56,750 nucleotides of DNA, taken from Gammaproteobacteria bacterium (GTDB taxonomy: Bacteria; Pseudomonadota; Gammaproteobacteria; GCF-002020875). The DNA lies in the NCBI GenBank assembly GCA_018648825.1, contig JABGQL010000034.1, positions 1 to 56,750 of the forward strand. The letters run 5' to 3'. The position numbers were made by a program, and so were the translations under genes. The notes under the pieces were generated by a model that ran no database searches, had not been told where the DNA came from, and worked only from the letters and a program-made list of their open reading frames with translations. Positions 24,663 to 29,572 of this stretch are shown here, one piece after another (the first letter of the stretch is position 1; every line of letters begins with the position of its first letter).

Positions 24663-25457
24663 TTACTCTACTTTGATAGCTGAGGGGTGGCGTAGACGCA
24701 GCCGATATCCACGTTTTCGTGGCACCAGCCACCCTTGCAGGGTAATCACCTTCCCCTGTAGCGCCTCAAGATCCAATTGCCCCTCAAAATAGGGTAGATC
24801 AGAGTGCTTAATCTGTGCAGAAACATCCTGCTCCATATCAAGCCAGAGCCACTCGTTACTCCAATCAACTCGCTTGACCCGCCCTCTGATACGTTGAAAA
24901 CCACCATGGTGAATTTGGCCCAATGGTTGTGGTTGATAGGCTGAATGACCCCAAACCCCATGCCCTGCTTCACGCGCCTGCTGTTGCGCTCCCACATAGC
25001 AATCACTATTCCAGAGGTTGGGGGGGACTACAATGGCAAACGCCAACCCCTCTTCGATCAGAGTTGCGGCAATATCCTCTCCCTGTGGAGTAAAGCCGTA
25101 GGCCAGCACCCTTCCATAGCGATCACGCTGCTCTGTTGCCCCCTTCAGTACTATTTTCGGTGGAACGCCCAATAACGCCCTCAGGCGCTGCGTGGCCCGC
25201 TTCGCCAGTGGCTCTGCAGGACGCTGACCACGCCCCACCTCCGGCGTATTGAACCCTACCAACCGCACCTTCTCGCCACCCACGGTATGTACCGTATCAC
25301 CATCATAAATTTTTTCAATCGAGTGTGGCTGCAACTGTCCCTGCTCTGGCACAAGACAAACTGCATTGAGCGCACCTGAGAAGAGCAGCACATAAAAAAA
25401 GGCACCTCGAAGAGATGCCTTTTTGAGCGGTTGCCTCAACAGTTGAGACAGACGCAA
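24663..25457 (-). CDS. Secreted thermonuclease (SNase-like) family protein with a C-terminal extension
   Basis: Signal peptide. IYDGDTVHTV..EKVRLVGFNTPE and RDRYGRVLAY are typical of the staphylococcal nuclease fold. Confidence 0.8.
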   Translation of the reverse strand: MRLSQLLRQPLKKASLRGAFFYVLLFSGALNAVCLVPEQGQLQPHSIEKIYDGDTVHTVGGEKVRLVGFNTPEVGRGQRPAEPLAKRATQRLRALLGVPPKIVLKGATEQRDRYGRVLAYGFTPQGEDIAATLIEEGLAFAIVVPPNLWNSDCYVGAQQQAREAGHGVWGHSAYQPQPLGQIHHGGFQRIRGRVKRVDWSNEWLWLDMEQDVSAQIKHSDLPYFEGQLDLEALQGKVITLQGWLVPRKRGYRLRLRHPSAIKVE

Positions 25458-25459
25458 GA

Positions 25460-25666
25460 TTACATGCTTCCGTATTTCTGACGGAACTTATCTACACGAC
25501 CCGCTGTATCCACAATTTTCTGCTTACCTGTGAAGAAGGGGTGACAACGAGAGCAAACGTCAAGATGTAGGCTGTCGTCAGACATGGTGGAGTTGGTCTT
25601 GAACTCGAAGCCGCAGCTGCAGGTTACATTGACTTCAGTGTACTCAGGATGAATTCCGCTTTTCAT
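25460..25666 (-). CDS. rpmE: 50S ribosomal protein L31
   Basis: MKSGIHPEY..., C..C...C..CHPF.TGKQ. Confidence 0.97.
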
Positions 25667-25808: not shown

Positions 25809-27485
25809 CTAACGCTTCATTGCGTCGAAGAAGTCCCCATTACTCTTGGTTGCACGCAACCTTTCCAATACAAACTCCATCGCTGCCAGCTCATCCATAG
25901 GATGAAGCACTTTGCGCAGCAGCCAGATCTTCTGCATCTCGTCCTCTTTCGTCAGCAGCTCTTCACGACGTGTGCCGGAGCGGTTGATGTTGATTGCAGG
26001 GAAGACACGCTTCTCAGCAATACGGCGATCCAGATGCAGCTCCATATTACCGGTACCCTTGAACTCTTCGTAGATGACATCATCCATTCTGGAACCGGTT
26101 TCGATCAGCGCCGTAGCGATGATGGTCAAACTACCCCCCTCTTCAATGTTACGTGCCGCACCGAAGAAACGCTTGGGGCGATGCAGTGCATTAGCATCGA
26201 CACCACCCGTCAACACCTTGCCCGATGAAGGAGCTACGGTATTGTAAGCACGTGCCAAACGGGTAATCGAGTCAAGTAGAATGACCACATCCTTCTTGTG
26301 CTCTACCATGCGCTTGGCCTTCTCGATCACCATTTCGGCAACCTGTACATGGCGTGACGCAGGCTCATCAAAGGTACTGGAGACCACTTCGCCCTTCACA
26401 GAGCGCTGCATCTCAGTCACCTCCTCCGGGCGCTCATCGATCAACAATACGATCATCGAAACCTCAGGATGGTTGTACTCAATCGCCTTGGCTATATTCT
26501 GAATGATAACCGTCTTACCCGCCTTAGGTGGAGAGACGATCAGGCCACGCTGCCCCTTACCAATCGGGGAGGCCAGATCGATCAGACGCGCTGTCAAATC
26601 TTCCGTACTGCCGTTACCACGCTCCATGGTGAGGCGATCATTGGCGTGCAGCGGGGTCAGATTCTCAAACAGCGTCTTGTGCTTACTCTTCTCTGGTGCC
26701 TCTTCATTGATGCTATCGACACGATGCAGTGCAAAGTAGCGCTCTCCCTTCTTAGGCGAGCGCACAGTACCGGTAACGGTATCACCATTACGGATACCAA
26801 AACGGCGAATTTGGTTGGGAGAGACATAGACATCATCTGGCCCAGCCAGATAGGAGTCATCCGCAGAGCGCAAGAAACCATAGCCATCCGGTAGAACCTC
26901 TAACACGCCACCCGCAAGAATAATGTCGCCCTGTCGCGCCAGTGCCTTGAGCAGGTTAAACACCAGATCCTGCTTACGCTGACGGTTCTGCAAGTTGATG
27001 TTGTTAGCGTTGGCAATCTCATGCAACTCAGGAACACTCTTAAGCTTGAGGTCCGTCAGATTCATGGTCTGAGGTTCGCGCTTTGGCCCCTCATCCTGCT
27101 GCTCTTCTGACTTACTATTCTGATGCTGGTTCTGCTGCCCCTGATTTTGATTCTGGTTCTGCCTCTGTTTCTGCTTTTGGTTATGTTTTTGTTTCTGGTT
27201 CTGGTTTTGGTTCTGACCATCCTCCTGTTTTTTCGGACCACTCTTGCGTGAGAGCGTACGCTTCTTACGTGCAGGGCGCTTGGCTGCTGGTGCTGCGGCT
27301 TCGGACTCTGCTGAAGGCTCAGCGGCGGTTACAGAAGGTTCCGCAACTGCAGTAGACTCTGCTTGCGCGGCTGGTGCGGCTTCTGCAACAGCAGGCTCTA
27401 CACTCTTCTGCTCAGTGGTTTCAGGCGCAGCGGCTTTTGCAGGTGCGATCTCGTCAGTAGACGGTTCTTGTGTTGATGTTGTCAT
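25809..27485 (-). CDS. rho: Transcription termination factor Rho with ~140-aa N-terminal low-complexity extension
   Basis: From MNLTDLK (ATG 27065) the protein matches my recollection of E. coli Rho almost residue for residue ([42 protein letters not shown]). The frame stays open 154 codons further upstream. The start could be 27485 (ATG), 27530 (TTG) or 27065. Confidence 0.9.
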
Positions 27486-27576
27486 TGATAGAAAAAAAAG
27501 GGGGAAAACAGAAAAAGAGTGGCTACCCAAGAGGTTTCAGAACTGAAGCGGGCTACCAGAAAATAAAGGGGGACTC

Positions 27577-27616
27577 AAAAACTAAACGAGATGGCCCAAC
27601 CCTTGGTTGGGCCATC
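27577..27616 (-). terminator. Intrinsic terminator of trxA
   Basis: Minus strand reads GATGGCCCAACC-AAG-GGTTGGGCCATC followed by TCGTTTAGTTTTT. Confidence 0.7.
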
Positions 27617-27630
27617 TACAGAACAGAATC

Positions 27631-27957
27631 TTATAGATTCTCCTCAAGGAAGGCAGAGAGCTGTGATTTATTCACTGCACCTACTTTGGTTGCCTCAACC
27701 GCGCCCTCTTTATAGAGCATCAGGGTTGGGATACCGCGAATACCAAATTTAGGTGGCGTATTTGGGTTCTCATCAATATTGAGTTTCGCCACCTTCACAC
27801 GCCCTGCATATTCGCCAGCGATCTCTTCCAGTACAGGGCCGATCATCTTGCAGGGGCCACACCACTCTGCCCAGAAATCTACCAATACTGGCAACTCAGC
27901 GGCCAATACCTCATCGTCGAAACTGTCATCGGTGATATAGACGATATCGTCACTCAT
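27631..27957 (-). CDS. trxA: Thioredoxin 1
   Basis: [12 protein letters not shown] and GIRGIPTL; 108 aa; rhlB/trxA/rho synteny. Confidence 0.95.
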
Positions 27958-28252: not shown

Positions 28253-29572
28253 ATGAGCTTAGAACAAGAAAACACAGACAAACAATCACACCTCTCTGAC
28301 ACCCCCTTCTCCTCTCTGGAGCTCTCACCCGAGCTCGCTCGTGGTGTTGAAGCGTGCGGATTTGAGTTCTGCACCCCCATTCAAGCAGACACTCTGCCGC
28401 TGGCACTACAGGGAAAAGACATCGCTGGTCAAGCACAGACCGGTACTGGAAAATCAGCCGCCTTCCTGTTGGCAACGATGGATCGACTGATCAGACACTC
28501 TCCTCCCGGATGGAAAAAGCTCAACCAGCCACGCGCGCTAATCCTCGCCCCCACCCGCGAACTGGCAATACAGATTCATCACGATGCAGAACAGCTGGGC
28601 CGCTTCACCGAACTCAAGCTGGGCCTCGCCTATGGCGGCACCGGCTATGATTCACAGCGCAAAGCGATTGAAGAGGGGCTGGACATTCTAATCGGCACCC
28701 CTGGCCGCATCATCGACTACTTCAAGCAGCACGTCTTCGACCTCAAAGCCGCTGAAGTGGTAGTGATGGATGAGGCCGACCGCATGTTTGACCTTGGCTT
28801 CATTAAAGACATTCGTTATCTGATGAACCGCTGCCCCAAACCAGAGAAGCGTCAGAGCATGCTCTTCTCCGCCACCCTCTCCTTCCGGGTGATGGAGCTG
28901 GCCTACGATCAGATGAACAAACCGGAAGAGATCAAGATTGAACCAGAGAAGGTAACCGCAGCCAAAATCAACGAGATCATCTACTACCCCGCGAATAACG
29001 AAAAGATCCCACTACTGATCGGGTTAATGAAGACCCTTGAGCCACACCGTAGCATCGTCTTCGTCAACACCAAATATGAGGCCGACAAGGTATGGAGCTT
29101 CCTCGAAGGAAATGGCTACCCTGCTGCAGTACTCTCCGGTGATGTACCCCAGAAGAAGCGCCAACAGCTGTTAGAAAAATTCCAACAGGGCGAAGTATCC
29201 GTATTGGTTGCCACCGATGTAGCCGCACGCGGGATACATGTCCCTGAGGTGAGTCATGTCTTCAACTATGATCTACCTCAGGACTGTGAAGACTACGTAC
29301 ACCGCATCGGTCGTACTGCTCGCGCAGGTGCCAGCGGTGATGCCGTCAGCCTCGCCTGTGAGAAATACTCTTTCTCACTACCTGAGATTGAGACCTATAT
29401 CGACCACAAAATCCCCGTTGGTAGCATCTCCAACAGCCTGTTGGCTGAGCTTAAACCCCCTGTGAAGCGCCCAACGCGAGATCGTGGCGGCAAGCCGGGG
29501 AATCGTAAACCCAACAATGGACGGCATGGAAAACCTCATTCAGGACACCGTAATGGACAGCGCAGACGTTAA
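28253..29572 (+). CDS. rhlB: DEAD-box ATP-dependent RNA helicase RhlB
   Basis: Q-motif F..L.L, AQTGTGKS, DEAD, SAT and HRIGRTARAG, with a basic R/K-rich tail. Confidence 0.9.
   Translation: MSLEQENTDKQSHLSDTPFSSLELSPELARGVEACGFEFCTPIQADTLPLALQGKDIAGQAQTGTGKSAAFLLATMDRLIRHSPPGWKKLNQPRALILAPTRELAIQIHHDAEQLGRFTELKLGLAYGGTGYDSQRKAIEEGLDILIGTPGRIIDYFKQHVFDLKAAEVVVMDEADRMFDLGFIKDIRYLMNRCPKPEKRQSMLFSATLSFRVMELAYDQMNKPEEIKIEPEKVTAAKINEIIYYPANNEKIPLLIGLMKTLEPHRSIVFVNTKYEADKVWSFLEGNGYPAAVLSGDVPQKKRQQLLEKFQQGEVSVLVATDVAARGIHVPEVSHVFNYDLPQDCEDYVHRIGRTARAGASGDAVSLACEKYSFSLPEIETYIDHKIPVGSISNSLLAELKPPVKRPTRDRGGKPGNRKPNNGRHGKPHSGHRNGQRRR

Follow-up and report, generated by a model that had tools for sequence, protein, structure and literature searches.

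A probable N-terminal extension of Rho with disordered composition and opposing charge blocks in a gammaproteobacterium

The rho gene in the window, the 56,750-nt stretch of contig JABGQL010000034.1 analysed here, probably starts at ATG 27485, the 420 nt ahead of the canonical start being coding, and would encode a 558-aa Rho with a disordered, electrostatic arm. This arm of 140 residues would precede a Rho that is otherwise ordinary, being composed of an N-terminal helix bundle, an OB RNA-binding domain and an ATPase. A preliminary description had pointed to such an extension upstream of MNLTDLK (ATG 27065), and the open frame together with comparative codon evidence bears it out. Since Rho sets transcription boundaries genome-wide, any further regulatory arm on it could alter the transcriptome as a whole. 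Atypical Rho proteins with N-terminal disordered initial regions have already been catalogued, and the Rho of the window therefore adds an example to this class and no new mechanism.

According to the list of open reading frames, rho lies within the window in its conserved gammaproteobacterial context, with trxA upstream, rpmE downstream and a divergent rhlB-like helicase gene:
25809-27485, minus strand: rho, long form, 558 aa plus stop (MTTSTQEPS...DAMKR), from the ORF list and translation
27631-27957, minus strand: trxA (thioredoxin), upstream of rho, an ORF with WCGPCK; Pfam Thioredoxin on the equivalent called gene
25460-25666: rpmE (L31), downstream of rho, an ORF
28253-29572: rhlB-like DEAD-box helicase gene, divergent from rho, an ORF
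Genome comparison found one rho copy in G000, and the Rho core is 69-78% identical to Rho from other Gammaproteobacteria. An identical long-form protein is called on 52 public contigs, and the long form has been picked by gene callers from several sources; the locus recurs on more than 90 public contigs (JGI, ENA and Logan). This Rho is the only one of its host, an uncultured marine gammaproteobacterium, whose rho locus is not high-GC.

The extension is delimited by two Met codons in one frame:
27483-27485, minus strand: start ATG of the long form, invariant and followed by conserved MT(T/E)(S/P/A)TQE
27066-27485, minus strand: N-terminal extension ('initial region'), 140 aa, open in 8/8 long-form congeners
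27063-27065, minus strand: canonical Rho Met codon (M141), kept inside the long form, the Met being invariant in all long and short forms
Canonical Rho (MNLTDLK) would begin with the ATG at 27065-27063 on the minus strand, and the nearest in-frame stop upstream of it is TGA 27539-27537, so that 157 sense codons precede it; the preliminary description was right that the frame stays open but had counted 154. The only in-frame ATG, GTG or TTG codons of this stretch are TTG 27530 and ATG 27485, followed by ATG 27065 itself. The mRNA strand of the extension region contains ~11% T, and for this reason an open frame in one genome is only mildly unlikely; the probability that a shuffled sequence stays open is 0.0085 for the window species and 0.0085-0.075 across the eight long-form species.

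This chance openness (~1-8% of shuffles of the T-poor sequence), the ORFs of 59-100 aa that also occur in several other frames and on the opposite strand, the lack of a Shine-Dalgarno (SD) sequence before ATG 27485 and the C-rich, G-poor, rut-like character of the leader would all suit a region that is untranslated, for example a long attenuator with an autoregulatory role as in E. coli rho. Rho would then be made from ATG 27065 (~47 kDa), and the open frame would be a by-product of T-poor, low-complexity RNA. The comparative data already contradict this reading, which we consider extremely improbable. Among the sense frames, frame 0 alone is free of stops in 8/8 long-form species, the other two having 1-11 stops each; every indel between species is in frame, the changes in the basic motif described below are synonymous only, the junction with the Rho core shows third-position wobble, and the ATG is kept at a conserved leader distance. 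Lack of amino-acid conservation of the upstream frame in relatives had been named beforehand as grounds for giving up the extension, and the comparison of related Rho N-termini found the frame conserved at that level.

Comparative evidence thus shows a predicted translation of the extension from ATG 27485 as part of the Rho protein, because the frame is open, the ATG and the MTTSTQE that it begins are kept (the Thr codons wobbling between ACA, ACT and ACC), variation in the basic motif and the junction is synonymous or at third positions, and the leader distance matches. From the trxA stop to the extension ATG there are 128-148 nt in the long forms, and from the trxA stop to the MNL ATG 137-175 nt in the short forms. 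The leaders of the two forms are homologous, judging from their alignment, and the following elements were recognised in the window:
27486-27630, minus strand: trxA-rho leader, 145 nt, from the leader alignment of 13 congeners (long and short forms)
27589-27617, minus strand: trxA terminator hairpin, from a terminator scan
27524-27542, minus strand: conserved box TTCTGAAAnnTCTnTGGGTA, from the leader alignment
27491-27519, minus strand: pyrimidine-rich tract adjoining ATG 27485, C/G ratio 2.0-2.6
TTG 27530, the start in some JGI gene calls (P0005-P0007), was rejected, as it lies inside the conserved leader box and is unconserved, and in G009 an in-frame stop intervenes. The preliminary description had left the start undecided; the invariance of ATG 27485 in 8 species, at a conserved leader distance, argues for this codon, and rho would be annotated from it instead of from TTG 27530 or ATG 27065. 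The mRNA of the extension was also considered as an autoregulatory rut-like site and rejected, its C/G ratio being 0.7-1.6 and high only in the leader before the ATG. A sigma-70 promoter scan of the leader found none, and an Rfam scan of 26950-27700 found no known leader RNA, isrG being at chance level (12.7 bits, where the gathering score is 100).

SD-like sequences (GGAG, GAGG or AGGA) were sought ahead of ATG 27485 and ATG 27065 and, in agreement with the preliminary description, none was found at the right spacing. Their absence is uninformative because a strict SD precedes the first ATG in only ~10/35 long ORFs of the window and is likewise absent from the short-form rho genes of congeners; the latter fact means that a missing SD is no argument against ATG 27485. 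Both ATG codons could be used, in which case hexamers would mix long and short protomers, and their number of arms would be tunable. The invariance of the canonical Met across all long forms, the equal lack of an SD at both starts and initiation of the short-form congeners at the same ATG, in a similar A/C-rich, SD-less context, are consistent with two isoforms. The 27 nt ahead of ATG 27065 evolve in a codon-like manner, with third-position wobble, unlike a conserved initiation region, and the internal Met may persist simply through helix 1 packing; two isoforms are therefore regarded as unlikely.

Within the extension, the three parts named in the preliminary description (acidic, basic and Q/N/K) were all found, the last with exactly the bounds given there, and a junction linker completes it:
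27282-27485, minus strand: acidic Ala/Glu/Pro/Thr-rich block, aa 1-68, by composition (net charge -10, 41/68 A, P or E)
27243-27281, minus strand: conserved 13-residue basic motif, aa 69-81, an identical peptide in G004, P0003 and P0004 and a variant in G009
27117-27215, minus strand: Q/N/K tract, aa 91-123, 33 aa, a degenerate (CAGAAC)n hexamer repeat
27066-27116, minus strand: junction linker, aa 124-140, ending in conserved GPKREPxT, from residue invariance and codon-position variation
The basic block runs on to aa 90 (nt 27216), and residues 69-90 have a net charge of +8 and include an 18-residue basic stretch. The acidic first half is present in 7/9 long forms, being weaker in P0003 and reduced in L006, and the acidic-then-basic charge order is found again in 8/9. 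Over the 13 codons of the basic motif, the window and G004 differ by 8 synonymous and 0 non-synonymous changes, one of them CGC to AGA, both Arg codons. In the junction, K135, R136, E137, P138 and T140 are invariant in the congener alignment, and the third positions of its codons are variable in 11/11, first positions in 5 and second positions in 5. The composition of the extension as a whole is that of a predicted disordered region.

For the arm as a whole, pairwise comparisons give dN/dS values of 0.2-0.67 (dS being saturated), so that most of it appears to be weakly constrained. Judged from codon and residue variation, purifying selection acts on three motifs, namely MTTSTQE at the N-terminus, the basic peptide and GPKREPxT at the junction; outside them, sequence and length drift freely. 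A translated arm without function, grown by repeat slippage and tolerated as harmless, would account for the hypervariable length and sequence, the dN/dS of up to 0.67 in some pairs, the Q/N tract as a slippage product with population polymorphism, and the absence of the arm from half of the genus. It would not account for the clear purifying selection on the three motifs, for the order of charge blocks kept in most long forms, or for the lack of any frameshift or stop in the long-form species, and such a neutral appendage is distinctly unlikely.

In the long form, Pfam matches above the curated cut-offs were obtained for PF07498 (Rho_N, aa 145-186, 42.1 bits), PF07497 (Rho_RNA_bind, aa 192-265, 110.9 bits) and PF00006 (ATP-synt_ab, aa 300-503, 98.8 bits), which is the order expected of the Rho family: Rho_N helix bundle, OB RNA-binding domain and RecA-type ATPase. 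A Pfam domain was sought in aa 1-140 and none was found. Type 2a Rho proteins have, by definition, more than 25 aa before Rho_N; an insertion exceeding 25 aa between this domain and the RNA-binding one would place them in Type 2b or 2c instead (PMC11347177). Because 144 residues precede Rho_N, which starts at aa 145, and 5 residues (aa 187-191) separate it from Rho_RNA_bind, the long form is, by its predicted domain positions, a Type 2a atypical Rho with an 'initial region'; the translation that this type implies is indicated by the comparative codon evidence. The extra region is wholly N-terminal and is not an insertion between helix bundle and OB fold of the kind known from Actinobacteria, Bacteroides and Clostridium. 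In residue counts it can be set beside the published APA, QN and RxR motifs, with 41/68 A, P or E, 25/33 Q or N and a K/R patch. AlphaFold2 with an 8-sequence alignment gave a mean pLDDT of 42 and a pTM of 0.34 and modelled even the Rho core poorly, and this result speaks neither for nor against disorder. The low-confidence helix that this poor model shows at aa 96-114 carries no weight.

Type 2a Rho occurs in ~8% of Pseudomonadota, including Xanthomonadales, and initial regions with APA, QN and RxR motifs have been described for this phylum (Moreira et al. 2024, NAR, PMC11347177). Like the Rho of the window, those of Xanthomonas oryzae and X. campestris have more than 25 residues before Rho_N, lack an insertion between Rho_N and the RNA-binding domain, belong to gammaproteobacterial hosts and carry Ala/Pro-rich, Q/N-rich and basic stretches. 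Type 2a initial regions are predicted to be disordered, as the extension would be by its composition. In X. oryzae the initial region adds 214 aa and contains a QN stretch of 95 aa for which prion-like behaviour is predicted (PMC11347177); the window extension, likened to it here by description, also holds a QN-rich stretch but is shorter in both respects (140 aa, with a tract of 33 aa).

The Q/N/K tract consists of 25/33 Q or N, 5 K/R (15%) and 2 H, with no residue of the set FILMVWY. Tandem Repeats Finder reported a period of 6 with 10.8 copies at 27151-27215, and a repeat of this kind, (CAGAAC)n, is predicted to be slippage-prone. A length polymorphism of one unit (6 nt) is the sole difference from contigs L107 and L108, and public assemblies hold the two main repeat alleles in roughly equal numbers. 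A comparable Q/N tract was sought in the congeners and not found. These comparisons show a recent, species-specific expansion of a variable spacer by hexamer repeats.

The classic cutoff for prion-like regions, proposed by Michelitsch and Weissman in 2000, is reportedly 30 Q/N per 80 residues. The densest 80-aa window of the long form (residues 91-170) has 36 Q/N and thus exceeds it, but 30 of its residues belong to the folded helix bundle and 20 (25%) are charged. The tract does not fit the other features looked for, namely low charge, some hydrophobic or aromatic residues and a core of ~60 aa. Only the window species reaches at least 30 Q/N; the four other long forms scored have 14-24 per 80 aa, and what the arm does across species must therefore be something other than Q/N prion propensity. 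The preliminary description had called the tract prion-like, a label that a stretch of 33 aa with 15% K/R, no hydrophobic residues and no conservation hardly sustains.

A heritable or reversible amyloid-like aggregation nucleated by the Q/N tract could inactivate Rho and make termination switchable genome-wide, a behaviour demonstrated for the Clostridium botulinum Rho insertion. Besides the Q/N density, the naturally polymorphic repeat length and the occasional prediction of QN motifs in other Rho additional regions as prion-like, including that of X. oryzae (PMC11347177), would be in keeping with this. Because the tract is lysine-rich and short, such a prion-like switch is weakly supported, and the dependence of its best window on helix-bundle residues and the low scores of the other long forms weigh against it too. 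In Bacteroides thetaiotaomicron, RNA-driven phase separation took more than the prion-like subdomain of Rho, whose conserved motif restrains condensation (PMC13269538). B. fragilis Rho, which has a QN motif, showed no aggregation in the conditions examined (PMC11347177). We consider the switch highly improbable and the idea of 'switchable genome-wide termination' speculation. The C. botulinum insertion, in the account of the primary studies given by PMC11347177 (Pallares 2015; Yuan & Hochschild 2017), is internal, Asn-rich, ~70 aa long and amyloid-forming by experiment. On that account it shares with the window tract a polar, amide-rich, low-complexity character and a place in the N-terminal part of Rho, but the tract is N-terminal, 33 aa long, Gln/Lys-rich, unconserved and known from sequence alone. 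Very unlikely as well is a role of the (CAGAAC)n copy number as a tuning knob of condensation or aggregation and of heritable termination strength, possibly combined with dual initiation at 27485 and 27065. With each repeat step affecting the only Rho of the cell, sub-populations of a strain would show heritable differences in how strongly they terminate transcription across the genome, and with dual initiation the choice of start would decide how many arms a hexamer carries.

Most likely the arm serves RNA binding or condensation as an electrostatic module, a function assigned by analogy to non-homologous disordered regions (IDRs) that are inserted elsewhere, between helix bundle and OB fold. 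One layout of the arm is kept across the long-form species of the genus: MTTSTQE tag, acidic block, short basic motif, variable polar spacer and GPKREPxT junction. The acidic block may be autoinhibitory by folding back onto the basic motif, or it may pair with the basic blocks that other hexamers carry; the arm would thereby adjust how Rho captures RNA and possibly also its RNA-dependent condensation, as the IDR of B. thetaiotaomicron Rho does. The Q/N/K tract would most likely serve as a polar, cationic spacer or modulator rather than as an amyloid-forming prion core.

A parallel for this module is that IDR (Krypotou et al. 2023 Science; 2026 EMBO J, PMC13269538), a region of ~270 aa with KE-rich (176 aa), conserved (30 aa) and prion-like (68 aa) subdomains. 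Its composition and short charged motifs are conserved, its length and overall sequence are not; RNA is bound by its positive motifs, which also promote condensation, and its negative ones are autoinhibitory (PMC13269538). The window arm resembles it in its variable length (65-140 aa) with conserved charged motifs of opposite sign (basic motif and acidic block), in having positive beside negative motifs and an N/Q-rich stretch, and in its predicted position near the primary RNA-binding site. It differs in that the B. thetaiotaomicron IDR is a non-homologous insertion between helix bundle and OB fold; RNA-dependent condensation that heightens termination, and control by ppGpp, would be putative for the window arm. 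In Actinobacteria (M. tuberculosis, M. luteus) a disordered Arg/Lys region adds RNA affinity and, in M. tuberculosis, governs recruitment to Rut sites (PMC13650167). There the main element is an insertion after the helix bundle, associated with structured Rut sites and high-GC genomes, and the rho locus of the window is not high-GC; the initial region of M. tuberculosis Rho is short, 35 aa (PMC11347177).

Within the genus, the frame is open in 8/15 species, with extensions of 65, 84, 98, 99, 100, 100, 105 and 140 aa, all in frame. The Rho cores of congeners with and without the arm are 89-93% identical to that of the window, and since seven congeners with such cores go without it, the arm appears dispensable in that background. 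The extension was sought in 14 class-level and 2 same-family outgroup genomes and was absent from all, and any extension was present in only ~6/150 among the class-level matches listed. The expectation in the preliminary description that such a region would be atypical for gammaproteobacterial Rho is thus supported by these genomes, but initial regions were already described in Xanthomonadales (PMC11347177). Both other genera of the family and 7/15 congeners have the short form, which argues for an origin of the arm independent of that in Xanthomonas. Overall, 2 changes in arm presence are needed on the tree; the short form of G008 sits among the long forms with support of 86/80, and its leader, compared with a view to a deletion of the arm there, aligns about equally well with long-form and short-clade leaders. 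Rho type is usually uniform within a genus (PMC11347177), whereas arm presence varies within this one. The genus is thus a natural experiment, with similar Rho cores with (8 species) and without (7) the arm; as the arm moreover reduces to three short conserved, easily mutated motifs, heterologous expression makes the role of a Rho initial region experimentally tractable. Genome sizes are 2.2-3.1 Mb in the 8 arm-bearing species and 1.5-2.0 Mb in the 7 armless ones.

The rho gene lies on the minus strand of the window, with its canonical N-terminus (MNLTDLK) beginning at ATG 27065. Upstream of this codon the frame is open for 157 codons, rather than the 154 of the preliminary description, to TGA 27539-27537, and the only in-frame ATG, GTG or TTG codons are TTG 27530, ATG 27485 and ATG 27065 itself. 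Translation from ATG 27485 gives a protein of 558 aa with the following layout:

aa 1-68, acidic Ala/Glu/Pro-rich segment, net charge -10
aa 69-90, basic segment, net charge +8
aa 91-123 (nt 27117-27215), Q/N/K tract; 25 of 33 residues Q or N, five K/R, no hydrophobic residues
aa 124-140, linker terminating in EGPKREPQT
aa 145-186, Rho_N (Pfam)
aa 192-265, Rho_RNA_bind (Pfam)
aa 300-503, ATPase domain (Pfam)

The segment coordinates and composition agree with those first described. The Pfam positions place about 140 residues ahead of an otherwise standard Rho, and the helix bundle is followed by the OB fold without any inserted region. This rho is the only copy in G000, a long-form species of the genus.

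A single genome is insufficient to decide whether this arm is translated. The mRNA strand contains only 11% T over the extension, 0.85% of shuffled extensions remain open for the window species, rising to 7.5% where the congeneric extension is shortest, and ORFs of 59-100 aa also occur in the other frames of the region. The cross-species comparison, covering all 17 species of the family (three genera in the taxonomy used, 15 species in the genus of the window), is decisive. N-terminal Rho extensions of 65-140 aa are present in 8 of the 15 species (G000, G001, G002, G004, G005, G009, G013 and G014), while the remaining seven and both other genera have a stop 2-32 codons 5' of MNL or MHL. Among the long forms, frame 0 is stop-free in eight of eight, the other two sense frames containing 1-11 stops each, and the extension always starts with an invariant ATG followed by MT(T/E)(S/P/A)TQE, in which codon 2 differs at the third position only (ACA, ACT, ACC). 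It ends in GPKREPxT, again in eight of eight, and the variable positions of this junction comprise 11 of 11 third, five first and five second codon positions. A basic peptide of 13 residues is identical in four species or clusters; between the window and G004 its 13 codons show eight synonymous and no non-synonymous differences, including CGC to AGA with Arg retained. Judged from these substitutions, the extension is under purifying selection at the protein level, which implies that ribosomes read the frame upstream of ATG 27065, and the alternative that it forms an untranslated leader is practically refuted. The canonical Met never varies, which is compatible with initiation at both ATG 27485 and ATG 27065, but such dual initiation is considered unlikely.

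The extension ATG of long forms lies 128-148 nt past the trxA stop, a spacing similar to the 137-175 nt between that stop and the MNL ATG of short forms; the MNL ATG of long forms would be 330-565 nt away. The leaders of both forms are homologous, and up to the start codon they contain, in the window:

27589-27617, minus strand, trxA terminator hairpin (terminator scan)
27524-27542, minus strand, box TTCTGAAAnnTCTnTGGGTA, conserved in long- and short-form congeners about 40-80 nt 5' of the rho start
27491-27519, minus strand, pyrimidine (C/U-rich) tract following the box and extending to the start codon, C/G ratio 2.0-2.6

The box and the C/U tract may serve as a promoter element or, alternatively, in autoregulation as a rut-like part of the leader; the trxA-rho leader has no Rfam match and no sigma-70 consensus match. 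TTG 27530 was rejected as a start codon, being located within the conserved box but itself unconserved, with an intervening stop in G009. The preliminary description found no convincing Shine-Dalgarno sequence at the candidate starts. None precedes the long-form ATG, but the short-form ATG of congeners lacks one as well, so that an SD-less start characterises rho throughout this lineage and is no argument against ATG 27485. Short-form congeners (rho starts L007-L020) and several class-level relatives likewise have rho without a recognisable Shine-Dalgarno sequence, initiating from A/C-rich leaders, e.g. caaccaaaccataATG. In public gene calls, the 558-aa protein is found on 52 contigs and a 560-aa protein on 42.

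The central part of the arm is hypervariable among congeners, in length as well as in sequence, and whole-arm pairwise dN/dS is 0.2-0.67, with dS saturated. The order of charge blocks, acidic, basic and then an approximately neutral linker, is clear in seven of nine long forms, weaker in the related public sequence P0003 and reduced at locus L006. What the sequences show is that the arm is translated, that three of its peptide motifs are conserved, and that the succession of acidic and then basic blocks is conserved too, the conserved core lying outside the Q/N tract.

The Q/N tract is confined to the window species, which has 36 Q/N per 80 aa and is the only one above 30, compared with 14-24 in the four other long forms scored. 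Elsewhere the same position is occupied by different short polar runs; G014 has N7 there, and P0003 a run of N and S. The coding DNA is a degenerate hexamer repeat of about 11 copies (sense unit CAGAAC, 27151-27215) and the fastest-changing site of the rho locus. Two loci from other samples with the 560-aa allele (L107 and L108) differ from the window over about 2.5 kb, from trxA to rpmE, solely by one extra 6-nt unit at ~27213, and further alleles exist, including a third arrangement (P0007). Species specificity, the hexamer repeat and the 6-nt length polymorphism together identify the tract as a young slippage product in a variable spacer. A prion-type switch operated by this tract is very unlikely, since the tract is short, lysine-rich, devoid of hydrophobic residues and unconserved. 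The initial observation is confirmed, and its interpretation holds in part: the arm is real and disordered by composition, but the emphasis on prion behaviour is unsupported, as is the suggested novelty.

Moreira et al. (2024), who classified Rho across 2730 genomes, defined Type 2a as having more than 25 aa before Rho_N, named 'initial regions' and found in 18.7% of Rho sequences; in 85 of 1045 Pseudomonadota the only Rho is of Type 2, and Xanthomonadales initial regions contain repeated APA and QN motifs (PMC11347177). By its Pfam domain positions the window Rho belongs to Type 2a, unlike the insertion-domain proteins of Actinobacteria, Bacteroides and C. botulinum. Our own sampling revealed unrelated short initial regions of ~40-70 aa in several other gammaproteobacterial lineages (loci L026, L038, L045 and L058, and L102-L106 in genomes G181, G203, G166, G223 and G272), Steroidobacteraceae MAGs among them, so that initial regions are a rare but recurrent feature of the class. 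These are R/N/G- or K-rich (basic, N-rich) and then acidic, e.g. ...GNQGRNRSKGQRHGNRERDGNR...DDVFDADESEIISPAEL...MSLTDLK, and look like independent origins of a basic-plus-acidic architecture. Some apparently begin at a GTG near or overlapping trxA.

In B. thetaiotaomicron, the intrinsically disordered region (IDR) of Rho acts via complex coacervation, in which condensation is driven by positive motifs that bind RNA, autoinhibition comes from negative motifs, and an N/Q-rich subdomain modulates but is insufficient by itself (PMC13269538). Its conservation pattern is the same as that of the arm. The disordered domain of M. tuberculosis Rho is needed for Rut-site recruitment (PMC13650167). By analogy with these two proteins, the basic motif may add RNA affinity at the hexamer crown and the acidic block may gate it, the Q/N/K tract being a putative polar, cationic spacer or modulator. 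The arm is of modest interest because it is present or absent within one genus, because motif-level conservation makes experiments easy, and because a polymorphic coding hexamer repeat resides inside an essential global regulator.

In the rho-core tree the long forms cluster, six short-form species form a separate clade, one further short form, G008, falls inside the long-form group with moderate support (86/80), and all outgroups are short; two changes are required. The simplest history would be that the arm was gained at the base of the genus or within it and lost once or twice afterwards. In a search for a deletion scar, the G008 leader proved about equally alignable with leaders of long forms and of the short clade. 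Assembly sizes separate the forms perfectly, at 2.2-3.1 Mb for the eight long-form and 1.5-2.0 Mb for the seven short-form species (G008, 2.0 Mb), a pattern confounded by phylogeny and MAG completeness but suggesting that the arm was lost as genomes were streamlined. A contig of the congeneric MAG G012 (C13, CALEHW010000013.1) is publicly labelled 'uncultured Methylophaga sp.'; Rho of the cultured Methylophaga muralis is of the short form and only 73% identical, and the genus name given at NCBI is probably imprecise.

Directly downstream of rpmE, a 264-aa ORF (24663-25457, minus strand), whose equivalent called gene matches Pfam SNase (staphylococcal nuclease-like), begins at a TTG and is hydrophobic at its N-terminus, suggesting that it may encode a secreted or membrane thermonuclease.
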